IMG/VR virus record: IMGVR_UViG_2713896907_000002
Span: 1-28,746 of that record
Length of the DNA stretch: 28,746 nucleotides
Source: a virus
Lineage: Duplodnaviria; Heunggongvirae; Uroviricota; Caudoviricetes
Strand: one strand, 5' to 3'
Translations under genes and position numbers: made by a program
The notes under the pieces: model-generated
Databases searched by the model: none
The model's input: only the letters and a program-made list of their open reading frames with translations
What the model was told of the DNA's origin: nothing
In this document: positions 2,188-27,534 of the stretch, one piece after another
Layout: the number at the start of each line of letters is the position of its first letter
Position numbering within the stretch: position 1 is the first letter of the stretch

Positions 2188-2202
2188 TTACCTTAAAGGT
2201 GA
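2188..2202. promoter_or_regulatory. TTACC-N5-GGTGA near-palindrome (site family member, one mismatch)
   Basis: TTACC TTAAA GGTGA in the divergent intergenic region between the lysis cassette start (2080, minus) and the acyltransferase start (2239, plus). Confidence 0.35.
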
Positions 2203-2238
2203 TATGATAAATAAAATGATTCATGGTAGATATATAAA

Positions 2239-3333
2239 ATGTTCATTACTAACACTGATGTTTTTACCTTTCTTTTCTTAGCTATATCATTAATAGCGGC
2301 TATTTTTGTCAAAAAAATAATCCCATCAACCGTAATAAATGTACATAATGACACAACCTTAGAAGGTTTAAGAGGCATTGCATGCTTATTTGTATTTATA
2401 AATCATGCTTCATATAGCATTCATCACATCGGAATACAAAATTGGCAAATGATGGGTGATTCACCATATACCGGGAGAATGGGAGCTTTCGGAGTGGAGA
2501 TATTTTTCTGTTTGACAGGGTACTTGTTTGCAAAAAAGATTCGCAAAGGAGATATAGACTTGTCATTTTTTGAAAAAAGAATCAGGAGGCTTGCTCCTGC
2601 ATATATATTTGTATCATTTGTAGTTTTTATATATTTCGTATTTATGAACTATAATGTTATTCGTGGTTACTACGATATATCGGCTTTGATCCAACAAATT
2701 TTCGGATTCGGTTTCTTTGGGAATAGAATATCTGTAAACGGTATGGTGGATACATCATTGAATGCTGTTGTGTGGACGCTTCCTTATGAATGGAAGTTTT
2801 ATGCAATAGTCCCCTTCGTAGCGGCTATTTATAAGCTAAGAAGGCCAATCCCTCTACTTATCGCATTTGGAGTAGCGACTGTTTGCATTGACTATTGGTC
2901 GAAAATGTTCTTGTGGGGGTTTTTCGTAACCGGATTCATTGCTTCATTCGTTGGTATTTTAGAAAATAGATATCTTAAGTATATCTCATATTACATAATG
3001 CTATTCCTATTTGCATATGCATTTAAGGGATCATTTGATATTCATGGTTTCCAAATGTTTGTCGTAGTATCTTTATTTTTCATAACATTTATTGCGGCAA
3101 GACCTAAGATATTCTCCATAGGAGTATTTGTTTACCTTGGAACTATAAGCTATAGCATTTATCTACTACATCAGGTAGTTACAACGGTTTTCATGAAATT
3201 AATCTCTGGGGTAATCGATCTACTTACCATAAATATGTATGAATACTTAATGGTCTGCATCATACCAATATCACTTACAATTTACTTATCATCTATTAGT
3301 TACAATAAAATAGAGAAAAAATTCATCAGATAA
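2239..3333 (+). CDS. Acyltransferase family 3 membrane protein (OafA/Oac-like O-antigen acetyltransferase), 364 aa
   Basis: ATG start. About ten hydrophobic helices. N-terminal region LEGLRGIACLFVFINHASY resembles the conserved R/H-containing first-helix motif of acyltransferase-3 proteins. Strongly AT-rich compared with its flanks and on the opposite strand to its neighbours. Confidence 0.8.
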   Translation: MFITNTDVFTFLFLAISLIAAIFVKKIIPSTVINVHNDTTLEGLRGIACLFVFINHASYSIHHIGIQNWQMMGDSPYTGRMGAFGVEIFFCLTGYLFAKKIRKGDIDLSFFEKRIRRLAPAYIFVSFVVFIYFVFMNYNVIRGYYDISALIQQIFGFGFFGNRISVNGMVDTSLNAVVWTLPYEWKFYAIVPFVAAIYKLRRPIPLLIAFGVATVCIDYWSKMFLWGFFVTGFIASFVGILENRYLKYISYYIMLFLFAYAFKGSFDIHGFQMFVVVSLFFITFIAARPKIFSIGVFVYLGTISYSIYLLHQVVTTVFMKLISGVIDLLTINMYEYLMVCIIPISLTIYLSSISYNKIEKKFIR

Positions 3334-3336
3334 ATA

Positions 3337-3368
3337 ATATTGGAGGGTTACTACCTCCAATATGTTTT
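3337..3368. terminator. Bidirectional stem-loop terminator candidate between the convergent acyltransferase and tailspike genes
   Basis: Stem of about 10 bp (3337-3346 / 3354-3363, core TTGGAGG/CCTCCAA) with a 7-nt loop, followed by GTTTT on the plus strand and AT-rich sequence on the minus strand. Confidence 0.45.
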
Positions 3369-3380
3369 GACTGCACTGTT

Positions 3381-5603
3381 TCAGCTGTTCGAGATTTTAC
3401 CAGATATCCTAAATCTTAGCGCTCCAGATTTGATGTAATTGTATGTGAGGAAAGTTCTTGTGCCATCAGATGCCACGGCATAGAACTGAATCTTTGTGAA
3501 GTCTGTAGCTCCTGTAGGAATAAATCCAATAACATCGACAGTTCCTGCTGGTAATGCATTCCCAAGCGCTGTCCTGACCTCTATCTCGCATCCTGCCCCT
3601 GGATAAAAACCAAGCCCTCTGGGAAGGGTGATTGTGATATTTCCTGTACCGCCTGTTGTTCCTGTAACATTTATACTTACATGCAAATCAACATGCTCAC
3701 CATCCCTCCTTGCAGTATATGTGCCAGTTTGTGTTACAGCTGTAGTATCATCGAAACCGATACTTCCAGTTAAGGCCGCATTAACCTGTAGTTCAGATTT
3801 AAATCCGCATATATTATTTCTCCACGGAATCGTTGGTTTATCACCATCCCATGTGATGGGTTGCGATGAAAAATGAGTTATTTTATTACCAAGAAATTTT
3901 AAATTAAACAAGTTGTTATTTATATCGCCAACAAGATAAGCAGCATAAAAAGGTAGCCCTCCCGTAACAACCTGTTCATTGTGAGAAGTTACAACAGCAT
4001 CGTGTATAGTATTGCTGGTTGAGCGAATCACAAACCCATAACCACCATTATCCATCGTTGCGCCAGAATCTGGATCTAATTTTGCAACGCTATCAGCATA
4101 TGGTCTATAAAGTGTATGCCCACCAGATATCAATTCAAAACCGATTAACATTTGCCTGTTAGGATATAAATCATCTGATGTTTTAGGATGTCCCCATGGA
4201 TGAGGATCTACAAGAGTATTCGCTCCGGTACCAGAAATGCGAATGCCTATTGGATAATCTATCGTTATAGGGTTTACAAAATGGCTATCACCAGTGCGAA
4301 TCCACAATCCAACTACCGACTTGCTTTCCCATTTCATAATTCCAAAGCAACTATGCATAATTGCGATTTCATAACCTATTGAAGGAATACCACCAATATC
4401 TGCCCCGCCTCTTAGCATCCCCCACGTTTCCATCTGACCTACCGTAACACCAGCTATATGCGTCATCAGAACACCAATTGCATCAACATGTTGGTAATAT
4501 ACGGTTCCCCAGTCAGTATTCTGCGTATGTCGTATGTGAATTCGTGGAATATAGGTACGCTTATCGCTATATGTGGTCGTTGGTGACATAATGTGATAGA
4601 CAGCCTTATAGCTATTTCCTGCGGCATCTACTGTTTGGAAATCACCAGTTGGATCTGCCCATATAACACCAGTCTGCAATACGCTAAGCCCTGCCAGATG
4701 CTTAATTGATGATTTAACCCGATAGACATTTGGCAGCCAAACTGTTTTGTTATTCTCATAAGCATAGTCATACGCATCCTGAATCATCACAGCCCAGTCA
4801 GTTTCTCCTGGATGATTTGCATAGAACTGCTCAGGTGTAACAAACTGCGAACGCGCAAATAGATCGTTTAAATCTGTTTGCACTGTACCGCTGGACATCG
4901 TGCCTATCAAACAACTTCCTGTTGGCTTCGCTAGTTCTATGAGAACATCAGCAGCAGAACCAGATTCTGGTAGTAGCATGATTGGGTTACCATTATCATC
5001 CATGCCTACAATTTTGTTTTTTCTCAACTCAACTGGTGGTAACTGCGGGATCATTTCTGCCGTGCGTAACGTTCTGCTAAAGAGAAGATCCGTATGCGAA
5101 GTGTTTCCAGCGCTAAGTGAGTCAGCATAATTCTTTGTCGCTGCATCCTGAGGGCGAATAGGGTCTCTTAAGTTTCTAATGTAGTTGTTTAGTGCGTCGT
5201 AATAATTAGCCACGAACGACGGCTTTCGCAGAACAAGGCTAAACCAACTACGCACTTGCTGGATCAGCATCGTCAGCTTATCGAACGCGTCTTCATGCAC
5301 CTCAGCGAAAAACTTTCCCTGATTGCGCAGATCAGTTTCCTGCGTAACCGGTAGCTCTCGTGATATAGAAATCTGATAACCGTTAGCCAACGCCTTCGAC
5401 AGAATTACATTACCGCCGTTATATCCTCCAGCTCCGGTAACTGTATAATCAGTATCAAGAGTCAGCACAGCAATATTTTCGTTAAGGTCAGAGACCTGAA
5501 CAACCAAGTCGGATTTTTTGAAAATACGGAAGGTATACGGAAATGATGTCGTAACGCCGTTACCTGTGTATTCGTTGTGGTCAACTTCGGTTGAGACCGT
5601 CAT
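3381..5603 (-). CDS. Tailspike / tail fiber protein (about 740 aa from the internal ATG)
   Basis: The track ORF starts at TTG (5705); the ATG at 5603 (MTVSTEVDH...) is preceded by GGAG. Large Gly/Thr/Asn-rich protein with beta-rich composition, located next to the host-range/seroconversion genes. Confidence 0.7.
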   Translation of the reverse strand: MTVSTEVDHNEYTGNGVTTSFPYTFRIFKKSDLVVQVSDLNENIAVLTLDTDYTVTGAGGYNGGNVILSKALANGYQISISRELPVTQETDLRNQGKFFAEVHEDAFDKLTMLIQQVRSWFSLVLRKPSFVANYYDALNNYIRNLRDPIRPQDAATKNYADSLSAGNTSHTDLLFSRTLRTAEMIPQLPPVELRKNKIVGMDDNGNPIMLLPESGSAADVLIELAKPTGSCLIGTMSSGTVQTDLNDLFARSQFVTPEQFYANHPGETDWAVMIQDAYDYAYENNKTVWLPNVYRVKSSIKHLAGLSVLQTGVIWADPTGDFQTVDAAGNSYKAVYHIMSPTTTYSDKRTYIPRIHIRHTQNTDWGTVYYQHVDAIGVLMTHIAGVTVGQMETWGMLRGGADIGGIPSIGYEIAIMHSCFGIMKWESKSVVGLWIRTGDSHFVNPITIDYPIGIRISGTGANTLVDPHPWGHPKTSDDLYPNRQMLIGFELISGGHTLYRPYADSVAKLDPDSGATMDNGGYGFVIRSTSNTIHDAVVTSHNEQVVTGGLPFYAAYLVGDINNNLFNLKFLGNKITHFSSQPITWDGDKPTIPWRNNICGFKSELQVNAALTGSIGFDDTTAVTQTGTYTARRDGEHVDLHVSINVTGTTGGTGNITITLPRGLGFYPGAGCEIEVRTALGNALPAGTVDVIGFIPTGATDFTKIQFYAVASDGTRTFLTYNYIKSGALRFRISGKISNS

Positions 5604-5711
5604 GTTAAATCTCCAGATAGTCGCACGCAGCACCCGTTGCGCCGCATATCTGGTTATTCTATTACCCAAAAAACCAGATATGGATAGAATAACTATAAAT
5701 ACCAATAGGTG

Positions 5712-5726
5712 TTACCTTTCAGGTAA
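5712..5726. promoter_or_regulatory. TTACC-N5-GGTAA palindrome (perfect)
   Basis: TTACC TTTCA GGTAA in the divergent intergenic region between the tailspike start (5603, minus) and the 85-aa gene (5803, plus). Identical 15-mer to the site at 24453-24467. A TGTATAAAT extended -10-like element lies at about 5767-5775. Confidence 0.5.
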
Positions 5727-5802
5727 TTTGCATGCCGTGCTGGATAGCAAATAAATCATCTGCTACTGTATAAATATATAGTTATTGCATGGAGAAGATA
5801 AG

Positions 5803-6060
5803 ATGCAGCAGTATCACTATCCACTGGAAGACGGATTTACCGAAAGGATTCACACGCCGGGAGGCGTCAGGTCACTGGTGGAGGGATCGCACTTGATGAA
5901 ATTACTCCGGGATCTCGATAAGGATGGATTTAATGTCGATGGCCCACTTGCCGAACTGACTGCACTGATTAACTACGTCACCAGCTCACAGATGTCTATG
6001 CGGGATCTGCAAACACATCTCGACTATTGTGCCGAACAATTACGAAAACAAACCAGATAA
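5803..6060 (+). CDS. Small protein (85 aa) paralogous to the C-terminal domain of the adjacent antirepressor
   Basis: Track ORF starts at TTG 5785; the ATG at 5803 follows GGAGAAG with a 5-nt spacer. Residues LMKLLRDLDKDGFNVDGPLAELTALINYV...MRDLQTHLDYCAEQ align by eye with LMNLLNQLQEDGHDVSGAAAELTTMFCYI...LRDIQMHAEYINDK of the 231-aa protein, roughly 40 percent identity over about 50 residues. Confidence 0.6.
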   Translation: MQQYHYPLEDGFTERIHTPGGVRSLVEGSHLMKLLRDLDKDGFNVDGPLAELTALINYVTSSQMSMRDLQTHLDYCAEQLRKQTR

Positions 6061-6091
6061 GGTTTGTAATTACCAAATGGAGTGCTTATAT

Positions 6092-6106
6092 TTACCTTTG
6101 CGGTAA
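6092..6106. promoter_or_regulatory. TTACC-N5-GGTAA palindrome (perfect)
   Basis: TTACC TTTGC GGTAA about 30 nt downstream of the 85-aa gene stop and upstream of the structured leader preceding the antirepressor gene. Confidence 0.45.
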
Positions 6107-6133
6107 ATTTACATCGCACTCCTCTTGTGCCAT

Positions 6134-6185
6134 AGTAATCGGGCACTGGCAAAATCCAGTGCCGGGATTGGCGTCCCGGATTACT
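6134..6185 (+). ncRNA. Structured RNA element candidate (multi-stem fold) in the antirepressor leader
   Basis: Outer stem AGTAATC (6134-6140) / GATTACT (6179-6185) enclosing a hairpin GGCACTGG-CAAAAT-CCAGTGCC and an alternative hairpin CCGGGA-TTGGCG-TCCCGG. No ORF of note overlaps on either strand. Confidence 0.3.
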
Positions 6186-6198
6186 AAAAGGCGCATTC

Positions 6199-6218
6199 AC
6201 CGCACAAGCGGTTTTTTT
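6199..6218 (+). terminator. Rho-independent terminator candidate (short stem plus T7 run)
   Basis: ACCGC-ACAA-GCGGT stem-loop followed by TTTTTTT (6212-6218), between the 85-aa gene and the antirepressor gene. Confidence 0.4.
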
Positions 6219-6317
6219 ATGCGTATAGCACGGCCACATTCGTATTATGGTGGGCTGTGTGGGGGCACCGAAAGGTGCGCCGGGTCCTTTTAGCCGGTTA
6301 CGCCAACCCTGCACAGT

Positions 6318-6350
6318 TCACCACCAACCGATTGGCGTCGGTAGTGGTGA
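6318..6350 (+). promoter_or_regulatory. Hairpin immediately upstream of the antirepressor ribosome-binding site
   Basis: TCACCA (6318-6323) pairs with TGGTGA (6345-6350), enclosing CCGA-TTGGCG-TCGG. It shares the 10-nt GATTGGCGTC (6330-6339) with the upstream hairpin at 6166-6175. Lies about 12 nt before the AAGG Shine-Dalgarno of the ATG at 6376. Confidence 0.35.
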
Positions 6351-6375
6351 TTAACCAGACTAAAAGGTAACCACT

Positions 6376-7071
6376 ATGACAGCTACAAAAAGCACGTCCA
6401 TTTTTTCTTTCGAATCCCAAGCCGATATACGAGTAATCGTCATTAATGGTGAGCCATGGTTTATCGCTTCAGATGTTTGTCGGGCTATAGGCATAGCAAA
6501 CCATCGAGATGCTGTTCGAAAACTTGATGATGATGAGAAGGGCGTCGCTTCAACCGACACCCCTGGCGGTGAGCAAGAATCGATCATCATCTCCGAGTCA
6601 GGCCTCTACACACTGATCCTCCGCTGCCGCGATGCGGTGACACCAGGCACTATCCCCTACCGCTTTCGTAAATGGGTTACAGGTGAGGTACTTCCTCAGA
6701 TCCGCCGCACCGGAAGCTACATTAAAAACTCGCTCCCGCAGGAAGAACGGATAAAGATGGTTGCCGACCAGGTAGCCAACGCCACGGCGTCAGCAGTGAT
6801 GCAGGCAATGAAGATAGAGAACAAAACCTACAGTGCCCCGCTGAAGCCCGGATACCGCAGCCTGATTCATTCTCCGTCTGGTGTTCTCGGCCTGACTGAG
6901 AACTCACTTCTGATGAATCTGCTGAACCAGTTACAGGAAGACGGGCACGACGTATCTGGCGCGGCGGCGGAGCTGACCACCATGTTCTGCTACATCGTCG
7001 GTGTGAGCAAATGCCTGCGTGATATCCAGATGCACGCGGAGTACATAAACGACAAGGCAGGGTTCTTCTGA
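6376..7071 (+). CDS. Antirepressor-like protein with N-terminal Bro-N domain, 231 aa
   Basis: ATG start. The N-terminus (FSFESQADIRVIVINGEPWFIASDVCRAIGIANHRDAVRKL) matches the Bro-N / phage antirepressor N-terminal domain pattern. The C-terminal domain is paralogous to the upstream 85-aa protein. Confidence 0.75.
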   Translation: MTATKSTSIFSFESQADIRVIVINGEPWFIASDVCRAIGIANHRDAVRKLDDDEKGVASTDTPGGEQESIIISESGLYTLILRCRDAVTPGTIPYRFRKWVTGEVLPQIRRTGSYIKNSLPQEERIKMVADQVANATASAVMQAMKIENKTYSAPLKPGYRSLIHSPSGVLGLTENSLLMNLLNQLQEDGHDVSGAAAELTTMFCYIVGVSKCLRDIQMHAEYINDKAGFF

Positions 7072-7079
7072 CGGGCGGC

Positions 7080-7098
7080 GGCACAGGGATGTGCCTTT
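7080..7098 (+). terminator. Weak stem-loop terminator candidate after the antirepressor gene
   Basis: GGCACA-GGGA-TGTGCC followed by TTTAAAT; the T-run is short. Confidence 0.3.
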
Positions 7099-7136
7099 AA
7101 ATAATTCTGTACAGATTGCAGGTGAATAGCTTACTA

Positions 7137-7151
7137 TTACCTCACGGGTGA
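7137..7151. promoter_or_regulatory. TTACC-N5-GGTGA near-palindrome (site family member, one mismatch)
   Basis: TTACC TCACG GGTGA about 100 nt upstream of the perfect site at 7238. Confidence 0.3.
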
Positions 7152-7188
7152 TCCATAGCGATTAGGCACCGATACAGGAGGAGCCCAC

Positions 7189-7221
7189 ATGAGAAAATTT
7201 GACGAGTACGAAGGCGTTTAA
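7189..7221 (+). other. Mini-ORF (10 codons, MRKFDEYEGV) with a strong Shine-Dalgarno, possible leader peptide
   Basis: AGGAGGAG (7176-7183), 5-nt spacer, ATG at 7189, stop TAA at 7219-7221. Lies between two palindrome sites upstream of the 211-aa gene. Confidence 0.25.
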
Positions 7222-7237
7222 CATTCGGATAGTTCAT

Positions 7238-7252
7238 TTACCCTAATGGTAA
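7238..7252. promoter_or_regulatory. TTACC-N5-GGTAA palindrome (perfect) overlapping the presumed -35 region of the 211-aa gene promoter
   Basis: TTACC CTAAT GGTAA. A TATATATTAT -10-like block (7273-7282) and GAGGTGA Shine-Dalgarno precede the ATG at 7293. The palindrome centre is about 42 nt upstream of a plausible transcription start. Confidence 0.5.
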
Positions 7253-7292
7253 ATCCCGCTTAAAGAAGCATCTATATATTATGAGGTGATGT

Positions 7293-7928
7293 ATGCCACA
7301 ACAACTGCTGAATCCGGCAAAGGTAACTGAGGTTTTCGCTCATCTGAACGAAACTCCAGACAACCGCGCCCTGTATTCAGAGTTAGTGAACGGCAACGAT
7401 GTCACATCTGATGTCAAAGGCGTTTCTCTGGCTCCTGGATACCGCGTTGTCCGTGTAGACGATCGTAAGAAAGGCGAGATTCCACAGGCGCACTTTGAAC
7501 TGTCATTGATAAATGACCTCACCGAAGAGGTAGTGTATTACAATCGTGTCATTATCCAGCCTGACAGCTATCTTAACTGCCGTCCTGTCACGCAGATATT
7601 GGTATGGAGAACCCAGAAGCCTAAGCATCGTGCTGTGCTTCATGATTTCGCCGGCATCATCTTCATGAACTACCTCTTGGAACGGTACGATATCATCGTG
7701 TCTGATCGCAACCAGACTCATGAAGGCATGTCGTTCTGGCAGGCTCGCATGTATGACGCACTGGAACTTGGCCTCCACCTCTATGGTTACGACATGATGA
7801 CATGCGAGCTGATAGAGATGAATAACGAGGAAGAGCTTGAGAAAGGTGAAACCTGGTTGTGGGGTGATGCGGAAAACTTCCAAAACAGATTGGCCATAAT
7901 TTCAAAGCATAAGCTGCCAATAAAATAG
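7293..7928 (+). CDS. Hypothetical protein, 211 aa (orphan accessory gene with its own regulatory unit and terminator)
   Basis: ATG start with GAGGTGA Shine-Dalgarno. Soluble-looking protein with no motif I recognise. Followed directly by a strong intrinsic terminator. Confidence 0.7.
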   Translation: MPQQLLNPAKVTEVFAHLNETPDNRALYSELVNGNDVTSDVKGVSLAPGYRVVRVDDRKKGEIPQAHFELSLINDLTEEVVYYNRVIIQPDSYLNCRPVTQILVWRTQKPKHRAVLHDFAGIIFMNYLLERYDIIVSDRNQTHEGMSFWQARMYDALELGLHLYGYDMMTCELIEMNNEEELEKGETWLWGDAENFQNRLAIISKHKLPIK

Positions 7929-7935
7929 TTCTTTA

Positions 7936-7958
7936 AGCCCGCGCTGCGGGCTTTTTTG
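7936..7958 (+). terminator. Rho-independent terminator
   Basis: AGCCCG-CGCTG-CGGGCT stem-loop followed by TTTTTT (7952-7957), 8 nt after the TAG stop of the 211-aa gene. Confidence 0.65.
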
Positions 7959-8029
7959 TGGACGAAACGAAAGTCAGTGCTACACTCATTGACGCCACAT
8001 TGAGGTGGCTTATAGATGGAAATTTCACA

Positions 8030-8191
8030 ATGAAAAAAGCATTTGCTGCACTGTTCGTTTTGTTGTCTCTGGTAGCTTCAACTCAGGCCTTTGCCGGTCG
8101 TTGTCAGAACGACAGCGATACTGCTGCTGACGGCTCCCGCTGCGGTGGGCGTTCTGCGGATTCCCGCCCGGGTGGCGGTGGCATTCGTTAA
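8030..8191 (+). CDS. Small secreted protein candidate (53 aa with a signal peptide)
   Basis: From the internal ATG: MKKAFAALFVLLSLVASTQAFA then G, a canonical signal peptide with an A-x-A cleavage site, followed by a Gly/Arg/Ser/Asp-rich tail with two Cys. A TTGACG-N16-TATAGA promoter-like element sits just upstream (7989-8016). Weak Shine-Dalgarno. Confidence 0.35.
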   Translation: MKKAFAALFVLLSLVASTQAFAGRCQNDSDTAADGSRCGGRSADSRPGGGGIR

Positions 8192-8212
8192 AAACAAGGC
8201 CGCGAAAGCGGC
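8190..8212 (-). terminator. Terminator candidate for the minus-strand ejection-protein operon
   Basis: Plus strand shows AAAAA (8190-8194), CAAG, then GCCGC-GAAA-GCGGC (8199-8212). On the minus strand this reads hairpin, CUUG, UUUUU. Confidence 0.4.
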
Positions 8213-8214
8213 AT

Positions 8215-8226
8215 GTGACATGTCAC
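8215..8226. promoter_or_regulatory. 12-bp perfect palindrome GTGACATGTCAC (copy 1 of 2)
   Basis: Perfect inverted repeat between the convergent small ORFs. An identical 12-mer occurs at 27613-27624. Confidence 0.35.
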
Positions 8227-8233
8227 GCTCACG

Positions 8234-8374
8234 TTATGACAAGCCTATGTACCCTGCTACACCAGATAATATCAAAACAACTGCAACAGCAAATTCACCA
8301 TCACCAATGATACATTTACGGTTCATAACGCCAAGTGCAACAAGCGCAAACACAACAAGAATAAAAGCAATCAT
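8234..8374 (-). CDS. Small hydrophobic membrane peptide candidate, 46 aa, last gene of the ejection-protein operon
   Basis: Not in the ORF track (below 60 aa). ATG at 8372-8374 is preceded by AAGGA with a 6-nt spacer, directly after the TAA stop of the 824-aa gene. Sequence MIAFILVVFALVALGVMNRKCIIGDGEFAVAVVLILSGVAGYIGLS predicts two transmembrane helices. Confidence 0.4.
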   Translation of the reverse strand: MIAFILVVFALVALGVMNRKCIIGDGEFAVAVVLILSGVAGYIGLS

Positions 8375-8383
8375 TTCTCATCC

Positions 8384-19584: not shown

Positions 19585-19600
19585 ATACACTCCTGCAATA

Positions 19601-19618
19601 AAGGGGCCGAAGCCCCTT
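19601..19618 (-). promoter_or_regulatory. Intra-operon stem-loop with UUCG tetraloop (on the minus-strand transcript)
   Basis: AAGGGGC-CGAA-GCCCCTT on the plus strand, a 7-bp stem. Sits in the 44-nt gap between two minus-strand genes, just upstream of the GGAG Shine-Dalgarno of the 107-aa gene. Confidence 0.4.
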
Positions 19619-19634
19619 GTCTGATTCGCGAGGC

Positions 19635-19970
19635 TTACACGCCCAGTTCTTTACGCTTATCTGCGATCTTCTCGCGGAGCGTTTCTGCTTTGGCGTTATG
19701 GTGTGGCTTCTCGTTAAAGAGCAATTCGTACTCTTCACGGAGCTTATCCAGTTCACCATCATCTGACGCATCGTTGATGATTTTGGTGCTGGTTGCTGCC
19801 ATTGACACCTTTCCTGCAACTTTTGCTTTTGCCTGTCTGGCTGCATCGTTAACAGGTTCCAGTGCGCTACCAGGCTCACCTTCGTATTCGATTTCTGCTC
19901 CCTCCGGCCACAGTGTGTTATGGATATGAGAGAGGCGCAGAACGCGGTATCTTGGTTTCTCACCAGACAT
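19635..19970 (-). CDS. Hypothetical head-module protein (about 111 aa)
   Basis: Track ORF starts at GTG 19979; the ATG at 19970 is preceded by AAGGTGA. Confidence 0.5.
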   Translation of the reverse strand: MSGEKPRYRVLRLSHIHNTLWPEGAEIEYEGEPGSALEPVNDAARQAKAKVAGKVSMAATSTKIINDASDDGELDKLREEYELLFNEKPHHNAKAETLREKIADKRKELGV

Positions 19971-19980
19971 CGATATCACC

Positions 19981-20418: not shown

Positions 20419-20433
20419 CTTCTTTCTCCATTA

Positions 20434-20453
20434 GTGGGTCTGTTACGACCCAC
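20434..20453 (-). promoter_or_regulatory. Stem-loop immediately downstream of the major capsid gene
   Basis: GTGGGTC-TGTTAC-GACCCAC, a 7-bp stem, between the capsid gene stop (20470) and the next gene start (20418). No U-run follows, so likely a partial terminator or mRNA-stabilising hairpin. Confidence 0.4.
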
Positions 20454-20469
20454 AGGTTAATAACAGGCG

Positions 20470-21456
20470 TTACACCACGCGGGCTTCTGTTTCCAGAAGC
20501 GCATCAGTTTCACGGATTGGTACACCACGGAATGAAGTCCACCACTCGCCTTCAGTCTCTTTTACGCTGATAGCCAGAGATGTTTTCTCCAGAGACTGCA
20601 GATCAAGAGCCTGGCCTACAGTGCGGTTCATGTAGAACACCGGGCGGCCCATGCCACGGTTTGGAATGCGATGCAGTGCTTTAACCATCAACTTCGCAAT
20701 ATTTGCGGCAGAGGAAGGTTCTGAAAGATTGCTGACATCGATGTTTGCAATGCGAACAACATAACGCCAGTCACGCAGAACAAGTCCGTTGTCCCATTTG
20801 TAATGGGTGCGATAGCCTTCGTACTTGCCGCCATTAGCATCTTCCAGTGTCACCTGGCCTTTATCTTCCATCTGAATGCCAGCCTTCTGCCCTTTCGGGA
20901 AGATGCCATGCACGGTGTTTTCTCCCCACACTACTAACCAGATTGAGGTGTTATCTGTACCCGTGCCACCAGCATCAATGATGTTCTGAGCATTACCCGC
21001 AGACAGGCTGGAATAGCGGGAGGACAGTCCCATAAACTGCTGAGGGTTAACGCTGGAATCACCATAAAACAGCGTCTGCGCCATCTGCTGATTCATCGCT
21101 TCAATAAATGCGCGGTCTTCAGACAGGCGGAATTCGGCGGTATTACCGTTCAGATCAGCCAGTGACTTATCGACTTCAGCATAGGTTTCCAGCATGCCAA
21201 CGGAGTCGGTGACCTGCACTGTGGTTGATTTGCTTGGCTGTACGCCATAGTTCAGCAAACGCCAGGTAGCTGAAGGTAAACCAGAACGAATGGTGGTTCG
21301 GTGTCCGGTAGGAAGGTTCCCTTCGACAAAAGGCATATCCTGAAGGATCGGGTTAGTTTTACCGAGAAGCTCGATAATCTTATCGACTTTCCCGTTTTGA
21401 TCGACGCGCTTACCCCAGTCAGCCAGCGTTAGCGCAGTTAAGCCTTTAACAGCCAT
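20470..21456 (-). CDS. Major capsid protein, 328 aa
   Basis: ATG start with GAGG Shine-Dalgarno. Size and position directly after the scaffold gene, followed by a stem-loop, match a T7-like head module. Assigned by context, not by a recognised motif. Confidence 0.7.
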   Translation of the reverse strand: MAVKGLTALTLADWGKRVDQNGKVDKIIELLGKTNPILQDMPFVEGNLPTGHRTTIRSGLPSATWRLLNYGVQPSKSTTVQVTDSVGMLETYAEVDKSLADLNGNTAEFRLSEDRAFIEAMNQQMAQTLFYGDSSVNPQQFMGLSSRYSSLSAGNAQNIIDAGGTGTDNTSIWLVVWGENTVHGIFPKGQKAGIQMEDKGQVTLEDANGGKYEGYRTHYKWDNGLVLRDWRYVVRIANIDVSNLSEPSSAANIAKLMVKALHRIPNRGMGRPVFYMNRTVGQALDLQSLEKTSLAISVKETEGEWWTSFRGVPIRETDALLETEARVV

Positions 21457-21470
21457 TGTTATTTCCTCTC

Positions 21471-22166
21471 TTATTTGCCATAGAGCACTTCGGCCGCACT
21501 ACGCTGGCCTTCATTACCACCGGTGACCATGCCATCTTCAGACATCGCCTTTCCGATTTTCACGAACGTTTTGACCAGATCAGGGTGATTACCCAGTCCG
21601 GTTGTGTTCAGATATTCTTTGAGTTCAGGTGTCCCGAACTGGTCAAGCGCACGCTGTGCGGCGCTAAGGTTAGAAATCAACTTGTCGCCACCGATTTCTT
21701 TGTCAGCTTTTACATCAGCAGCCCACTGCTCGGTCGTTTTCTGCCAGGCTTCTGCCTGACGCTGCTGCACACCTACCAGAATCTTCGGATAAGCATCAAC
21801 CAGCTTTTGCGCTTGCTCGTTGGTCAGGTTAAGTTCTCGCGCTACCGGCTCGAATTCCTTCAACGCATCTGTATCCAGCTCTACGCCTTCGGCAGCATGA
21901 AATTGGTACTTCTCCGGCGCACCATCTGGTTTATCGCCGTCCTTTTTTTCATCCTGCTTATCGTTTTCAGGCTTTTTGTCATCAGCAGGTTTATCGCCAT
22001 CAGCAACAGGTTGTGGCTTATCACCTTCCTGTTGTGATGGATCACCAACTGGAGCAGGGTTATCACCTGCAGGCGCTGACGGTTCTGACGCAGCCGGAGC
22101 TGCTCCACCATCGACTGGTTGCTCATTGCAAAGACGGCGATACAGCAAACGCTCAAATAAATTCAT
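21471..22166 (-). CDS. Scaffolding protein (about 231 aa)
   Basis: Track ORF starts at GTG 22172; the ATG at 22166 is preceded by AGGAG. Highly acidic, Pro/Asp/Lys-rich low-complexity N-terminal region and a helical C-terminus. Lies between portal and capsid genes. Confidence 0.6.
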   Translation of the reverse strand: MNLFERLLYRRLCNEQPVDGGAAPAASEPSAPAGDNPAPVGDPSQQEGDKPQPVADGDKPADDKKPENDKQDEKKDGDKPDGAPEKYQFHAAEGVELDTDALKEFEPVARELNLTNEQAQKLVDAYPKILVGVQQRQAEAWQKTTEQWAADVKADKEIGGDKLISNLSAAQRALDQFGTPELKEYLNTTGLGNHPDLVKTFVKIGKAMSEDGMVTGGNEGQRSAAEVLYGK

Positions 22167-22168
22167 GA

Positions 22169-22465
22169 TCACTCCTGTTCACTGGCCTCTTTGGCCATCT
22201 TCAAATACTGTTCAGGGCAATGCGCCATAACGCGCTGAAACAGTTCCAGCGCCAGATTGCGTTGCCCCTCATTAAATGCCATTGCCATAGCGTCCATCGG
22301 TGAGATAACGGAAAACACACGGCCTTTCTCCAGCACCGACCAGACAACGCGACGCCCCTGTTCACTGCTCATGACAAAGCGAATGTCATCAATTTCACGC
22401 TGTGCCATGTCACGTTGCTTACGGGCGTTTTCTTCTTTCAGTTGATCGTCTTCGTAATCTGTCAT
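22169..22465 (-). CDS. Hypothetical protein, 98 aa
   Basis: Overlaps the portal gene stop by 4 nt. Charged helical protein of unknown role. Confidence 0.45.
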   Translation of the reverse strand: MTDYEDDQLKEENARKQRDMAQREIDDIRFVMSSEQGRRVVWSVLEKGRVFSVISPMDAMAMAFNEGQRNLALELFQRVMAHCPEQYLKMAKEASEQE

Positions 22466-24141
22466 TGTGATTGCCCACCCTGACCACTAACTGCATTCGC
22501 CATAGCTGACAAAACACTCGGATCCGAAGTTTTAGCTTCGCTTAGCGTCTTGGCACCCTGTGCCGCCGCCATCCCCATCGCCATCATTTGTTGCTGCTGT
22601 TGCTGCTGTGCCCGTTGCTGGCGAGCCTGCTCAACCTGTTCCTGCGGAACAATGACGGTTGGAGACACTCCGGACATATCAGCGAATGCATCGATCGCCT
22701 GATCAACGTTGAGTTTGTCGAGAGCTTCTGGTTTCGCTTGCGCAAGTTGACCAATGAAGTTAACCGTGGACGCCAGACTGGACAGGCCGATAGACTTCTG
22801 CGCCTGAGCCATGACGGAAATGTATTCGACCTTCAGGGGCATGCCTTCCATCGCGTCAGGCGGTGGCGGAAGCATGTTTTTACGCACCATCATCGAGAAA
22901 GCGCGGTCAATGAGAGGATTAAGACATTCGTCGTTCAGACGCTCCAGAACCGGCCCCAACATCAGAAGTTTTTCTTCTTTCATTTCGATCACCGCTTCAA
23001 CAGGCATCGAGCGGGTATTGATGTTCTGTAACATCATGAACAGATCGACAAAGTAGGCGCTGTTAATGATTTGACGAGTGTCCTGAATGTCTGCCACCAA
23101 ATCTGCTGTACTGGGGTTAACCAGATAAGCAGGCCTGAAACCATCCTGACCAGTAATCTGATCGATATACGTGATGTCGCCAGGAAGAAGGGAGGCACGC
23201 TGATTCTTGAGGGAAGTCGGAGCAACCATCGGCGGATTGGTGGCTTTATCAATCAACTGCGACTTGCGCTTCTGGAGAAGCTGCAATGCCTTAACAGGTC
23301 CAAGCGCCAGCATGCCCGGGCATGATGATCCATAAACATCTTCGCCGTTAACTTCCCAGCGCGGAGCCATAATTGGAAACTCATCGAATCCGGATTCACG
23401 TAACAACTTGTCGTTGTCGCCGCCAACCTCGTAATAAACCGATTTGAATGGCTTGTTCTTGCTATCCAGCTTCGATGTATCGCGGTCAATGTTCGGGTAA
23501 ACCGAATGCATAACTTCAATCCACTTCTCGTAGGTGCCGCTTTCCCACATGCTTTTTACGGATTCGCTAACGTTATTTAGCCCGAACTCCTGAACAAGCT
23601 GACGAACAGTCATAGAGAACTTGCGAAAACAGGTGTCCACACTGCCACGAGGTGAGTTAGCCAGGTAGTAACTGCCTATCGGGAATGGCATTGTGCGAAT
23701 GATGTCCTCGTCATCCTCCAGCACCGCCATTGCACCAGTGCTGTATGTACCGAGGCTTCCGTATAACTGCGGCAGCGACTGGTAGAGATTCGACTTATTG
23801 AACATATCGTTCATGCGGTTCTGCACCGCCTCAAGCCACAACTTAACAGGTCCATAATCCATCATTTCAGGATCTGGCGTAGCCAGGCGAAACCACGGAC
23901 GCGCGGGGCTTGTGATGCCTGACATCATGCCGCTGGCGAGAGTGCGCGCCGCCATAGTCCCGGTCGAATCAATAATGCGTGTATTGCGCCGATCGTTACG
24001 GTTGACCTCAGAAGTCAGAAAGCGGGAACCACGCGGGTTGATGTAATCACTCAACTCGCGCCAGTGCGGCTCGAACGACTGACGCTCGCTTTCAAGTTGT
24101 GCGAACTGTTTGTTCAATCGCTCTTTAGTTGTTTCCGCCAT
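22462..24141 (-). CDS. Portal (head-to-tail connector) protein, 559 aa
   Basis: ATG start with GGAG. Size and position downstream of the terminase match a portal. C-terminus carries a poly-Gln / Met-Ala-rich tail. Confidence 0.75.
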   Translation of the reverse strand: MAETTKERLNKQFAQLESERQSFEPHWRELSDYINPRGSRFLTSEVNRNDRRNTRIIDSTGTMAARTLASGMMSGITSPARPWFRLATPDPEMMDYGPVKLWLEAVQNRMNDMFNKSNLYQSLPQLYGSLGTYSTGAMAVLEDDEDIIRTMPFPIGSYYLANSPRGSVDTCFRKFSMTVRQLVQEFGLNNVSESVKSMWESGTYEKWIEVMHSVYPNIDRDTSKLDSKNKPFKSVYYEVGGDNDKLLRESGFDEFPIMAPRWEVNGEDVYGSSCPGMLALGPVKALQLLQKRKSQLIDKATNPPMVAPTSLKNQRASLLPGDITYIDQITGQDGFRPAYLVNPSTADLVADIQDTRQIINSAYFVDLFMMLQNINTRSMPVEAVIEMKEEKLLMLGPVLERLNDECLNPLIDRAFSMMVRKNMLPPPPDAMEGMPLKVEYISVMAQAQKSIGLSSLASTVNFIGQLAQAKPEALDKLNVDQAIDAFADMSGVSPTVIVPQEQVEQARQQRAQQQQQQQMMAMGMAAAQGAKTLSEAKTSDPSVLSAMANAVSGQGGQSQ

Positions 24142-24155
24142 TTCAATGACTCCGG

Positions 24156-24362
24156 TTACTGACCAAGCAGCGTCTTACCGCTGGTATTAGCGGTTGATGT
24201 GTCGCCCTGAGAACCGGTAAGCAGCGTAGAACTACGACCAGCAGCAGCGCGACGGCGACGTGTTTCTTCGTCGCGGGCATCAACAACGGCGGCATCCTGC
24301 TCCTGTGGTGCTGCCTGAACTTCTGGTGTTGCAGGCACTGATGGTGAGCTACCCATGCACAT
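24156..24362 (-). CDS. Hypothetical small protein, 68 aa (uncertain)
   Basis: ATG start. Its upstream 11 nt, GGAGTCATTGA, are identical to the portal gene translation-initiation region. Low-complexity Ala/Arg/Ser-rich composition lowers confidence. Confidence 0.3.
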   Translation of the reverse strand: MCMGSSPSVPATPEVQAAPQEQDAAVVDARDEETRRRRAAAGRSSTLLTGSQGDTSTANTSGKTLLGQ

Positions 24363-24452
24363 ATCAATGACTCCGTACGCAATTAAATTATTACCAATTT
24401 AACCATATATGATTTATTTATCGTAGACAGTTGACATTTAACGCACGAATTA

Positions 24453-24467
24453 TTACCTTTCAGGTAA
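24453..24467. promoter_or_regulatory. TTACC-N5-GGTAA palindrome (perfect)
   Basis: TTACC TTTCA GGTAA, about 100 nt upstream of the portal-side operon start (minus) and upstream of the tRNA island (plus). A TTGACA hexamer lies at 24431-24436. Confidence 0.5.
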
Positions 24468-24788
24468 CCAAAGAGTTCATTCCGGTTACTAACCTGACTG
24501 GCTTGTCGTTAAATTGAACAGGTGGAGTGAGCTTTTATTTTGAGCAGTACGGCGTATGGCACATGCGCCGATAGCGGTCTGGATACGTTTAAGGGGCACC
24601 CTCCCTTGCTCGGGCAAACGAACCAGGTAGCCGGAATGTGCAAGTCGAGCGGTTTTATTCCGCGCACAGGGTTCACCATCCCGGCGATTCGGTGTGACAC
24701 CTCGGAAGAGACGAGGGTACAACGATGAGAGCATTTATGGAGCCGCGACAAAGTGTGGTGCCTTAACAGGCTAAGTTCTCTCAGCGTT

Positions 24789-24865
24789 GTGGCATTAGAT
24801 CAGTTGGACAGAGCAACCGCCTTCTAAGCGGTTGGTCGCAGGTTCGAATCCTGCATGCCGCGCCA
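24789..24865 (+). tRNA. tRNA-Arg (anticodon UCU), phage-encoded, with encoded CCA
   Basis: Manual cloverleaf: acceptor GTGGCAT/ATGCCGC (one G-U pair), D-arm GATC-AGTTGGAC-AGAGC (one A-G mismatch), anticodon stem ACCGC/GCGGT with loop CTTCTAA, T-arm GCAGG-TTCGAAT-CCTGC, discriminator G, then CCA. Closely resembles enterobacterial argU. Confidence 0.8.
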
Positions 24866-24908
24866 GAATCACGCCTAAGGACCGTGATGCCAGAAGTTCC
24901 AGGGGCTT

Positions 24909-24950
24909 GGCGGTGATGGTTTCCCTTGAAGGACTATCACCGCCCTTTTT
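24909..24950 (+). terminator. Rho-independent terminator candidate after the tRNA
   Basis: GGCGGTGAT (24909-24917) pairs with ATCACCGCC (24936-24944) around an 18-nt loop, followed by CTTTTT. Confidence 0.45.
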
Positions 24951-25028
24951 ACAGCAGGACGCCATTGCGATGACTTCATGCTGTAAACCAGTACAGCCAC
25001 GGAAGGCATAACTCATAGCTTCCAGTTC

Positions 25029-25052
25029 GCCCGGTTCGCCGGGCATTTTTTT
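25029..25052 (+). terminator. Rho-independent terminator (UUCG-loop hairpin plus T7 run)
   Basis: GCCCGG-TTCG-CCGGGC followed by A and TTTTTTT (25046-25052). Confidence 0.65.
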
Positions 25053-25122
25053 ACTTGAATTTTACCCTCAACAAACCAACATAGAACTTGGCATTTGCCA
25101 TAACTTTCACAAGGAGTCAGCC

Positions 25123-25422
25123 ATGAATGGTTGGAATAGAAAAAAGACTCAATATTTAGCTGAGTGCATCCACGAACACGAAAAAGCCGACGGAGTAACC
25201 TACGATCCTAACGGTATGGTTAGCTACTGGAACACAAAATATAACCTCGTTCCTGCTGAACAGTTGCCAGCATTACAAAATCAGGTATCTCTCGAATTAG
25301 AAGCTCTACGCGGTGCTGAGACTAACCATGTAACAATTAGCAACATTGGTGCCGCTAAGTTTGGATTCGACTCTGTAATAGGGAATCATCTACCTAACTT
25401 CGATCCGGAGCCAGTTAAGTAA
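25123..25422 (+). CDS. Hypothetical protein, 99 aa (plus-strand moron between terminase and portal)
   Basis: ATG start preceded by AAGGAG with a 7-nt spacer. Opposite strand to the surrounding structural operon, co-located with the tRNA island. Confidence 0.55.
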   Translation: MNGWNRKKTQYLAECIHEHEKADGVTYDPNGMVSYWNTKYNLVPAEQLPALQNQVSLELEALRGAETNHVTISNIGAAKFGFDSVIGNHLPNFDPEPVK

Positions 25423-25433
25423 TTTGCTGACCA

Positions 25434-26909
25434 TTATGCATAAGGGTCATAATCCGTTATGGCCCTTCCCTGCTGGCTTTGCTGTCCTGGTATATTTATG
25501 CGTTTCGAGACCGGGAAAGCAAACGTCAGCAGTAGCGCATCGCCTTTACCAGGAGAACGCCCAAGACGCTCTTTGATATCTTCCTTCGGTTCGATAACGA
25601 TTTTACCGTCCACACGAACTTTGTACTCTGCCGCCGACAGGTCGTCTGCAGTTTCCTGGTCATCCAGCATGCCGCCCAGCCTCAGCCATGTCTTACATGA
25701 GTTGAACATCTCCCCACGCTTGTTAAGCATCTGCGGGTCAGTGGACGCACCGCTGAACGGAACAAGTTGCCATGTACGTCCCCAGCCATCACCGATTGAC
25801 TTCAAACCGGTTCCGTAACCGAAGTCGATGAACACCGCGTCAGCCTGGTACTGGTCTTCAAAGTCAGCGATACGCTTCGCCATAATCAGATCGTCGGTGG
25901 TCTTGTTGCCGGTCCACAGCACCTTACTGTGCAGCCCCTGCCGCAGGTATATCACCGCGTCATCAACACCGGAGTATGCAGGGTCAACGCCGATTATCAC
26001 CGGAGCATGTGCCACCTGCGCAGCAGTTACCACCCGTTTCATTGCCTCGTCAGTAAGACCGGTAGGGATAAACTGCAATTCAGATGCATCAGGGAATATA
26101 CCGCGCACACGTATTTTAACGAAGTCGCTGTCTTCCCCGTAGTCATCAACCCATTTCTGCAACTGCTGTTTGTTGGTGCCTTCCACCGTCCGGCTGTCAA
26201 TCTGCGCAGTTTTCCAGCGGTGTTTATATTTGCGGAAACATTCGCGGAAACGTCCGGTATTACGCGTCGGGTTTCCGAACGCCACCCAGATAATCTCAGT
26301 GTCTTCGTCCGTTAGCGCACCCTCGGCAACTTCCCACACCAGATCCGCAATGTTCGACGCTTCATCGAATACCACGATGATGCGTTTGCGCTCGTTGTGT
26401 AGTCCGGCGAATGCCTCAGTGTTGTGCTCAGACCAGGGGATTGCGTCAGCTCGCCACCGCTTGTCGTGCCCAGGATCATTGCTGTACATCGCGGTAGCGG
26501 TACAGGTAAACCAGTCTTTCGTGATAGCAAGGTTCGACCACTTGATAATTTCCGGCCAGGTCTTCGTTCGTAGCTGGTTGTCGGTGTTGGCGGTCACCAC
26601 GACCTTACAATCCTCGCAAGTGGACATGCCCCAGTTGATGAGCATTGAGATGAATGCGGATTTACCAATACCGTGACCAGAAGCACGTGCCAGCATAAGC
26701 GGCTGATAACGCGTCTCTGGATTCTGCAGGTGATCACGTATCTCTCGGAACGCATCGGCCTGCCACTGACGTGGACCGGTAGCATGTGCCAGTTCAGTCC
26801 CCTCTTCCCCCCAAGGGAACGCATAGAGGGCATAGCCAAGCGGATCGTGAGTGAACCCTGCAATATCTTCGATTAACTGCTCTTCAGGAGATAACGCTGC
26901 ATCTGTCAC
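25434..26909 (-). CDS. Terminase large subunit, 491 aa
   Basis: GTG start overlapping the small-subunit stop. Walker A-like ASGHGIGKS, Walker B-like IIVVFDEAS, and a C-terminal nuclease-type acidic segment (VIIGVDPAYSG). Confidence 0.85.
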   Translation of the reverse strand: MTDAALSPEEQLIEDIAGFTHDPLGYALYAFPWGEEGTELAHATGPRQWQADAFREIRDHLQNPETRYQPLMLARASGHGIGKSAFISMLINWGMSTCEDCKVVVTANTDNQLRTKTWPEIIKWSNLAITKDWFTCTATAMYSNDPGHDKRWRADAIPWSEHNTEAFAGLHNERKRIIVVFDEASNIADLVWEVAEGALTDEDTEIIWVAFGNPTRNTGRFRECFRKYKHRWKTAQIDSRTVEGTNKQQLQKWVDDYGEDSDFVKIRVRGIFPDASELQFIPTGLTDEAMKRVVTAAQVAHAPVIIGVDPAYSGVDDAVIYLRQGLHSKVLWTGNKTTDDLIMAKRIADFEDQYQADAVFIDFGYGTGLKSIGDGWGRTWQLVPFSGASTDPQMLNKRGEMFNSCKTWLRLGGMLDDQETADDLSAAEYKVRVDGKIVIEPKEDIKERLGRSPGKGDALLLTFAFPVSKRINIPGQQSQQGRAITDYDPYA

Positions 26910-27502
26910 TGATTACCATCCTGACGTTCTTTGAGTCGCTTCCTGGCTGCCGCTATGCGATCAGCAATTGTCACATTCACATTAACATCCAAGCGTTCTT
27001 TGAATGCGTTGACGTCGACGTGCTTACCAATCAGTTCTAGGTTCTTCACCTTGTCAGGCCATTTAATTTTTTTGAGGATTGTCTCTATCGAGTCCTCGTT
27101 CATGTTCATGATGGTCGATGACAGATCAAAGCCGCTAAGCGTAGTGCGCCATATTTTCGGCCACTCGCGGATTGGCTTAAGGCTCCCATCGTCGTTGAGG
27201 ATATCAATCACGTCCATCTGGTCGATCTCCACCAGGCGCATGAGAACGTAATCAGCACTGACGCGCATTCGTTTGTTGCGCTCCTCCATCAACTCGGCAA
27301 TCCGTTTTTGAATGCGTTCATCGCGCATCATGACACTGGCTTTAACTGCCGCTGTATTTGGGGAGAATCCTGCGTTAATCGCAGCCTGAGTCTGGTTTTC
27401 AGGCGTTTTGATGTATGACTGGCAATAAGCCTCCTGCATTGCTGTGAGCGGCTTAAATTGCGTTGATTTGCGTTTATAGGTTTTAGGTTCAGCAGGCATC
27501 AT
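26906..27502 (-). CDS. Terminase small subunit (about 198 aa from the internal ATG)
   Basis: Track ORF starts at TTG 27580. The first ATG (27502, MMPAEPK...) is preceded by AGGGTGG. The N-terminal extension would translate the palindrome as low-complexity VTITTTVTIT, so the shorter form is preferred. Helix-turn-helix-like region AAINAGFSPNTAAVKASVMM; directly upstream of the large subunit. Confidence 0.65.
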   Translation of the reverse strand: MMPAEPKTYKRKSTQFKPLTAMQEAYCQSYIKTPENQTQAAINAGFSPNTAAVKASVMMRDERIQKRIAELMEERNKRMRVSADYVLMRLVEIDQMDVIDILNDDGSLKPIREWPKIWRTTLSGFDLSSTIMNMNEDSIETILKKIKWPDKVKNLELIGKHVDVNAFKERLDVNVNVTIADRIAAARKRLKERQDGNQ

Positions 27503-27519
27503 AACCACCCTGGTAATTG

Positions 27520-27534
27520 TTACCGTTGTGGTAA
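27520..27534. promoter_or_regulatory. TTACC-N5-GGTAA palindrome (perfect) immediately upstream of the terminase small-subunit start
   Basis: TTACC GTTGT GGTAA, with an extra GGTAA half-site at 27512-27516. Centre is about 25 nt upstream of the ATG at 27502. Confidence 0.45.

Follow-up and report, generated by a model that had tools for sequence, protein, structure and literature searches.

Phages of the epsilon15/phiV10/SPC32H type are maintained as prophages by a repressor, Rep, which is inactivated by a small antirepressor, Ant. The SPC32H Rep has three domains, for DNA binding (N-terminal, a helix-turn-helix), dimerisation (middle) and tetramerisation (C-terminal); the form that binds palindromic DNA is a tetramer, which Ant takes apart (PMC9638917; PMC9986798). 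When Rep is overexpressed in phage ZX5, free phage is abolished, and holin and endolysin mRNA fall by more than 99.9% (PMC9782041). Here we analyze the 28,746 nucleotides of IMG/VR record IMGVR_UViG_2713896907_000002 (the window, by which we mean this whole stretch), in which the 15-bp palindrome TTACC-N5-GGTAA recurs in front of or between transcription units. An initial annotation had proposed these palindromes as sites of a single dimeric phage regulator, either a late-gene activator or a repressor with dispersed, stoperator-like sites. From comparison with related phages we conclude, with a probability of roughly 85%, that they are the operators of Rep.

The palindrome set and its counterparts in relatives

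Perfect copies of TTACC-N5-GGTAA lie at 5712-5726, 6092-6106, 7238-7252, 24453-24467 and 27520-27534. The coordinates and the chance expectation of 0.03 copies given for these five in the initial annotation are borne out by a scan of 100 dinucleotide-preserving shuffles, none of which contains five or more. With one mismatch allowed, the window has nine sites against 0.58 expected. The imperfect ones include the copies with a GGTGA arm at 2188-2202 and 7137-7151, which had already been noticed, and two which had been missed: 27502-27516, which reads TAACCACCCTGGTAA, is 18 bp from 27520 and is kept in relatives, and 1942-1956. The sites at 5712 and 24453 do share one 15-mer, TTACCTTTCAGGTAA, spacer included. 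In a blind count of all 5+5 palindromes with gaps of 0 to 11, TTACC with a gap of 5 tops the list for the window, and likewise for three relatives. The spacers of 72 perfect sites, drawn from eight genomes, are A/T-rich, and 98% have an A/T central base pair; the spacers had been called T-rich, and of that the A/T-richness stands while the preference for T merely depends on the strand that is read.

Eight of the nine sites are intergenic. The exception, 1942-1956, falls inside a holin-like gene and is probably a chance match outside the operator system, since 0.58 such matches are expected and the equivalent phiV10 position has no counterpart. For all the real sites the claim that they are non-coding holds once gene starts are corrected, because the mechanically called open reading frames (ORFs) of terminase and tailspike start too early and run over operators and promoters. 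An alignment of relatives puts the start of the terminase small subunit at ATG 27499, in agreement with the epsilon15 and TL-2011b annotations, and not at TTG 27580 (ORF 26906-27580); the reference phiV10 small subunit (41-715) is over-extended in the same way. The tailspike start is likewise downstream of 5650 and not at TTG 5705 (ORF 3381-5705).

The window is an integrated phiV10/epsilon15-like podophage of the genus Uetakevirus. In reverse orientation, Escherichia phage phiV10 aligns with 83% of the window's first 25 kb at about 95% identity; among complete E. coli genomes the best match is 97% identical over 93% of the query, short of a full match. The window sites fit the 15-17 bp palindrome (A)TTACC-N5-GGTAA(T) of the Uetakevirus Rep operator set. 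We scanned seven complete genomes of relatives and found, at one mismatch or fewer, 14 sites in phiV10, 15 in epsilon15, 15 in Tyrion, 18 in SPC32H, 14 in TL-2011b, 19 in 65FD and 13 in BUCT711, with fewer than one expected in each genome where the shuffle control was run. Two or three sites separate the repressor gene from a divergent cro-like gene in every relative, and the leftward early promoter again has two or three; further, a pair precedes the second rightward early unit, and a conserved one-mismatch site precedes the integrase. This clustering at the rep/cro-like switch is seen in the relatives, and the equivalent region of the prophage studied here lies outside the window. A scan against shuffled sequence, which the initial annotation had proposed as a check, thus finds the motif enriched in the window and its sites conserved in relatives.

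The epsilon15 reference record, NC_004775, carries seven features labeled "protein_bind, repressor, lysogeny", and all seven coincide with matches to the motif. By alignment, three of the seven are orthologous to the window sites at 27520, 24453 and 5712. Because the annotated features and the motif coincide, the palindrome set is a rediscovery of annotated operators, and the palindrome is an already-known feature of epsilon15/phiV10-type phages. A full-text literature search for the motif or operators in Uetakevirus returned nothing relevant, the primary epsilon15 and SPC32H papers being outside its reach. The operator is identical in phages of four host genera: Escherichia, Salmonella, Enterobacter and Klebsiella.

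To judge by the phiV10 map, the window ends on the right before the immunity region and the integrase are reached, and phiV10 rep is about 5-6 kb past the equivalent of that end; this agrees with the earlier statement that the regulator gene is not to be found in the window. At the other end, a prophage attachment core, ATTGAGTGGGAATGATT, lies at 156-172 on the minus strand and is an exact match to the attP/attB core of ZX5. That core is reported at the 3′ end of guaA (PMC9782041). Homology to phiV10 also begins at 156, so the prophage starts there, with host flank before it (bases 1-155). From there the order is attachment site, lysis cassette, acyltransferase, tailspike, ant, Bro-N gene, a 211-aa gene, structural operon with terminase, and the last of the early-right genes. 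By family match the acyltransferase (Acyl_transf_3) is encoded at 2239-3333 on the plus strand and the Bro-N protein at 6376-7071. The orphan 211-aa gene (7293-7928, plus strand) stands behind two operators, 7137 and 7238; it has no Pfam or NCBIfam match and belongs to a module that is variable among relatives.

Rep, Ant and the promoter-operator map

The Rep of phiV10 matches the SPC32H Rep structure, 5D50 chain A, with an E-value of 4e-42, and the ZX5 Rep is identical to it. The pattern NLVNRW..G.K.IG...AR.IE is invariant across the Reps of five genomes, which are 43-78% identical to that of phiV10. We take this segment to be the helix-turn-helix, with NLVNRW as the predicted recognition helix, and an invariant recognition helix fits an invariant half-site. 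The antagonist is present in the window itself: ant, at 5803-6060 on the plus strand, encodes the small antirepressor that inactivates Rep, and matches 5D50 chain E, "Anti-repressor protein", with an E-value of 1.9e-46. An alignment of relatives places a LexA box before it, CTGTATAAATATATAG, at 5766-5781 on the plus strand. The last tetramer of this box is ATAG in the window vs. ACAG in 7/7 relatives. With a weaker LexA site, the basal level of the antirepressor could be higher and spontaneous induction could rise, and a point mutation in the LexA box reportedly makes SPC32N lytic. As for the Bro-N protein, overexpression of the Bro-N "anti-repressor" in ZX5 lowers repressor mRNA by 75% (PMC9782041), a result which hints, indirectly, at positive autoregulation.

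The main argument that the sites repress comes from where they stand with respect to promoters. An operator that covers about -7 to +8, or one that sits in the promoter spacer, is in the classical position for excluding RNA polymerase. A consensus promoter scan of the window finds promoters at chance density overall, and several exactly on operators. We counted promoter-like hits within 30 bp of sites using the same criteria in four genomes. The window has 3 such hits (0.57 expected, P = 0.022), SPC32H 7 (1.0 expected, P = 0.0015), phiV10 8 (0.9 expected) and BUCT711 5 (0.5 expected); the last two counts were reached in 0 of 2,000 permutations. An offset between promoter and operator of 0 or +1 is found for 11 pairs at 10 sites; the leftward early promoter is among them in each of the three relatives scanned.

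The terminase promoter is the clearest example. The perfect operator at 27520-27534 (O1), which corresponds to epsilon15 protein_bind 12-27, covers about -7 to +8 of an extended -10, TGtTACTAT, at 27534-27542 on the minus strand. The arrangement TG-n-TACTAT abutting TTACC, 3′ of the preceding terminator, is shared by the window and the six relatives whose sequence covers this region. O2, a second operator at 27502-27516 with one mismatch, coincides in part with GGTGG, the ribosome-binding site of the terminase small subunit, and the O1/O2 pair is also found at 18 bp in phiV10, epsilon15, Tyrion, TL-2011b and 65FD. On this evidence the terminase operon appears to be directly repressor-controlled.

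The same geometry is repeated at three other sites, where the operator begins at the last base of a -10. At 24453-24467, between the portal operon (minus strand) and a rightward unit, the last T of the -10 of TAGACA-18-AATTAT (24424-24453, plus strand) is the first T of the operator, which covers about -7 to +8; this site is the orthologue of epsilon15 protein_bind 2931-2947. At 6092-6106, just 3′ of ant, the operator covers about -7 to +8 of the rightward promoter TTGTAA-17-TATATT (6064-6092, plus strand), again with the last T of the -10 as its first base, and both the 15-mer and the promoter geometry recur at phiV10 20497. The phiV10 counterpart of this operator is the center of a perfect 39-bp palindrome (20485-20523). 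The start of the 6064-6092 promoter would be near 6099 and a strong terminator lies at 6199-6212, all before the Bro-N gene, which points to either a short RNA (about 110 nt) under repressor control or a terminator that is regulated. The variant operator at 7137-7151, 3′ of the Bro-N gene, covers about -7 to +8 of TGTACA-18-TACTAT (7108-7137, plus strand). This candidate promoter is below the threshold of the scanner and would read into the 211-aa gene; its TACTAT|TTACC junction is identical to that of the terminase promoter.

At the acyltransferase gene the operator is in the spacer instead. The variant-arm site TTACCTTAAAGGTGA at 2188-2202, between the lysis cassette (minus strand) and the acyltransferase gene (plus strand), fills the spacer of TTAACG-18-TATGAT (2179-2208, plus strand), which the promoter scan reports with a TG before the -10. 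It is the GGTGA arm that supplies this TG of the extended -10. The variant arm is kept in phiV10, Tyrion, SPC32H and 65FD, the four relatives with an acyltransferase gene.

The two remaining sites are of a different kind. The operator at 5712-5726, the orthologue of epsilon15 protein_bind 19895-19911, lies in the divergent tailspike/ant intergenic region, and a TTGCAT hexamer resembling a -35 begins one base after it on the ant side. The operator at 7238-7252 is in the leader of the 211-aa gene, 101 bp 3′ of 7137, and is probably an auxiliary or roadblock partner of that site. Both 5712 and 7238 may be auxiliary, loop-forming, roadblocking or even activating.

Pairs of operators are spaced in a quantized manner. 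In the seven genomes there are 13 pairs with 62 bp from center to center, plus one at 63 bp, and 10 pairs at 17-18 bp. The 62-bp pairs are always at the leftward early promoter and at the second rightward early unit (31953/32015 and 35070/35132 in phiV10), BUCT711 having its 63-bp pair at one of them; one operator of each pair is on the -10/+1, with its partner upstream of the -35 by about 19 bp. Such fixed spacing fits a tetramer with two binding units, and suggests that one Rep tetramer would hold both sites of a 62-bp pair in a small fixed loop. The pairs in the window are 27502/27520, at 18 bp, and 7137/7238, at 101 bp.

The switch that we propose would work as follows. Each 15-bp site would take one pair of Rep DNA-binding domains, and the tetramer would carry two such pairs. 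In the lysogen, Rep would be on the operators of nearly every transcription unit, each of these being bracketed by terminators. In the window, four operators start from the last base of a -10, at the terminase, tRNA-Arg, post-ant and post-Bro-N promoters, and one occupies the acyltransferase spacer; Rep bound at those five promoters would exclude RNA polymerase. Upon DNA damage, LexA would release ant, and Ant would disassemble the Rep tetramer, resulting in a joint de-repression of all units. What remains of the single dimeric regulator first proposed is one regulator with two-fold symmetric sites; according to PMC9638917 it is a tetramer and not a simple dimer.

Late genes, other candidate binders and points against Rep

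The initial annotation had placed the sites upstream of the major units. This is true for terminase, but the portal, tailspike and lysis sites overlap promoters that point in the opposite direction, and they appear to belong to the divergent tRNA-Arg, ant and acyltransferase units. As an example, a tRNA-Arg(UCU) found with ARAGORN at 24789-24865 on the plus strand, between the terminase and portal units and on the strand opposite to the late genes, is likely the product of the operator-controlled promoter at 24424-24453. Terminators follow it at 24909-24944 and 25029-25044, and the plus strand of the portal locus also holds an invariant TTGACA. The mechanically called ORF 24795-25046 on the minus strand, annotated as p04 in phiV10, is antisense to the tRNA and probably not a real gene. 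In alignments of the portal, tailspike and lysis upstream regions the operator keeps a fixed distance to the start codon that follows it. For the 24453 operator and the first portal-operon gene this is 105 nt in all relatives but BUCT711, where it is 106 nt; at the lysis locus it is 120 nt in five relatives, the window having 113 nt.

The portal, tailspike and lysis promoters have a second motif in common, CATAT-N2-GGTT, 7 bp upstream of a conserved -10 (TATGAT, TAATAA or TAATAG) and without a conserved -35. In the window it is found at 24401-24411 (minus strand), at 5672-5682 (minus strand) with an inverted copy at 5645-5655 (plus strand), and at 2147-2157 (plus strand); in phiV10 at 3308, 20921, 20948, 24736/24739 and 33132. 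There are 6 copies in phiV10 vs. 0.27 expected, and 4 in epsilon15 vs. 0.30 expected. It stands 58-80 bp from an operator, with the Rep sites about 70-82 bp upstream of the late starts, and its conservation on the late side makes it probable that a factor other than Rep serves the late promoters; a PerC-like activator from the early-left operon of relatives is a candidate for its binder. In phiV10 the lysis promoter has it within a palindrome, AACCATATATGGTT. We also considered the full palindrome AACC-N6-GGTT as the second motif and rejected it, being weakly enriched, whereas the half-motif is robust.

These observations bear on the idea that the palindrome is the site of a late-gene activator, acting from about -42 to switch on the operons for terminase, portal, tailspike and lysis. 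Sites do stand in intergenic regions adjoining all four late units, and at 5712, 6092 and 7238 one can draw an operator followed by one base, a -35, 17 bp and a -10, a geometry which recurs. But the geometry that truly recurs is the overlap with the -10 at offset 0, there is no fixed operator position just upstream of a late -35, the conserved -10s on the late side being about 70-82 bp away from operator centers, and the portal, tailspike and lysis promoters carry CATAT-N2-GGTT instead, at -33 to -20. At 6092 the upstream promoter that ends on the operator explains the site better, and the promoter that had been proposed with 7238 at about -42 is doubtful, given that its start would fall inside the ribosome-binding site of the 211-aa gene. 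Moreover, more than half of the sites in the complete relatives are in early and immunity regions. With the motif densest at immunity and early promoters and overlapping core promoter elements, we consider activation very unlikely, and it is the other option of the initial annotation, a repressor with dispersed sites, which immunity-region density and promoter overlap favor. The term stoperator-like fits in that the sites are dispersed, but since they are palindromic and placed at promoters it is a loose analogy.

If the sites are repressor operators, Rep is not the only conceivable binder. A Cys-rich protein of 112 aa encoded at 27621-27962 on the minus strand, immediately 5′ of the terminase genes, a homologue of phiV10 gp55 and epsilon15 gp49, is annotated as a transcriptional regulator (phrog_536, E = 1.7e-54) and is kept in all relatives, beside the terminase operators. 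Yet the homologue in Pectobacterium phage ZF40, 67% identical, coexists with zero copies of TTACC-N5-GGTAA in 48 kb, the family also occurs in phiKO2 and in Yersinia and Vibrio phages with unrelated immunity systems, and a late-expressed protein would leave the sites at the rep/cro switch unexplained. It is highly improbable as the binder of the palindrome, and also unlikely as that of CATAT-N2-GGTT, a motif which ZF40 lacks. The protein has a basic N-terminus and a Cys-rich C-terminal stretch (CCGKCG...CPCNGDSQC), has homologues in ZF40, phiKO2, Yersinia, Vibrio and Aeromonas phages, and owes its "regulator" label solely to phrog_536; no Pfam or NCBIfam family matches it. A cro-like protein of the phiV10 gp41 type, sharing operators with Rep and relevant at some dispersed sites in lytic growth, is somewhat easier to imagine, as it is encoded divergently from rep with operators between them in every relative, and a repressor and Cro sharing operators is standard in lambdoid switches. 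It would complement Rep binding without replacing it, and as sole binder it would contradict the epsilon15 annotation; we regard it as improbable. The least credible proposal is a host factor, or a role in RNA or DNA structure such as a 5-bp hairpin, a terminator, or a target for packaging or methylation. Formally, the motif conforms to the generic T-N11-A of LysR-type boxes, and it is the same across phages of four host genera, but the sites are confined to promoter regions and clustered at the immunity switch, both orientations are found, some sites lie inside promoter spacers, and the Rep recognition helix is invariant. As for a hairpin, starts are predicted within the palindrome, such that it would not be transcribed whole, and there is no T-run.

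Several points nevertheless weigh against Rep. Among the Rep relatives, including that of Klebsiella phage BUCT711, we found no heteroimmune phage with a co-varying operator; even Reps 42-45% identical to that of phiV10 retain the same operator and the invariant recognition helix. The link between Rep and the sites consequently comes from location and annotation and not from covariation. The rep gene of this prophage lies outside the window, and Rep is assigned from relatives. The epsilon15 protein_bind features are possibly predictions themselves, and 5712 and 7238 overlap no convincing core promoter. Finally, the acyltransferase is a lysogenic-conversion gene that should be on in lysogens, yet it has an operator in its promoter spacer; the conserved weak arm of that operator may tune its occupancy. 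We infer that Rep alone and not also the cro-like protein binds each window site, as well as the direction of regulation at 5712 and 7238.

Taking all this together, we tentatively put forward a more specific picture, which we hold to be possible but on balance rather less probable than its negation. Apart from terminase, the operators in the structural half of the genome would be -10/+1 operators of small divergent accessory units (tRNA-Arg, ant, Bro-N, the orphan gene, the acyltransferase), all within a "flat" regulon of one repressor, with operator and helix frozen across four genera, 62-bp pairs looped, and separate late promoters marked by CATAT-N2-GGTT.

In terms of annotation, the gain is that the window can be described as a phiV10-like prophage at a guaA-type attachment site, with its palindromes as the Rep operator set. 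There is also a testable promoter-operator map for this phage family, including a putatively directly repressed terminase promoter, and a caution that operators adjoining late operons may serve divergent accessory genes. Since the operator does not vary among phages of four host genera, cross-immunity between them is predicted, which could matter for phage typing, for reporter phages (phiV10 is used as one) and for phage-therapy cocktails. What is new here is modest and confined to the refined map of promoters and operators and to the late promoters having a motif of their own; current understanding is not overturned.

Comparison with known systems

The closest described systems are the epsilon15 operators and the SPC32H Rep-Ant switch (5D50, 5D4Z), which have the same palindrome, ATTACC-N5-GGTAAT, the same Ant and the same Rep family. 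Sites at orthologous positions in epsilon15 precede the terminase small subunit and the portal operon, and another lies between the tail fiber gene and ant. The window phage differs in being phiV10-like, with a Rep of that type about 42% identical to the epsilon15/SPC32H Rep, and in having three extra operators (6092, 7137 and 7238) in a Bro-N/211-aa accessory module that is absent from epsilon15. For its part, epsilon15 has motif sites at 33341, 33358, 33388, 24704 and 35969 that are unannotated in its record.

Phage lambda, with CI and Cro acting at OR1-3 and OL1-3, likewise has palindromic operators for helix-turn-helix proteins between a divergent repressor and cro and at the leftward early promoter; there too operators overlap the -35 and -10, and oligomers bridge separated sites. 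However, lambda has six operators at two loci and controls its late genes via Q antitermination, whereas here there are 13-19 sites distributed over almost all transcription units, with the terminase promoter included. Kim and Ryu are said to have reported in 2013 that induction in this family is by antirepressor and not, as in lambda, by RecA-stimulated self-cleavage.

As for dispersed sites, mycobacteriophage L5 also has one immunity repressor (gp71) with many sites, including some in the structural region. The L5 stoperators are asymmetric 13-bp sites, strand-biased, within transcribed regions, that block elongation (PMC1934351). Unlike them, the window sites are symmetric and mostly on a -10/+1 or in a promoter spacer; leader positions suited to a roadblock are confined to 27502 and 7238. 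The repressor of Streptomyces phage phiC31 has many palindromic operator copies at individual early promoters genome-wide; its family is unrelated to Rep, and it works without an antirepressor switch. Outside of phages, Rco of the Bacillus plasmid pLS20 has a homologous DNA-binding domain and the same type of C-terminal tetramerisation domain, which it uses for DNA looping, and it is also antagonized by a partner protein (PMC9986798). Rco controls a conjugation operon from two operator clusters, unlike the phage-wide set of sites that we assign to Rep.

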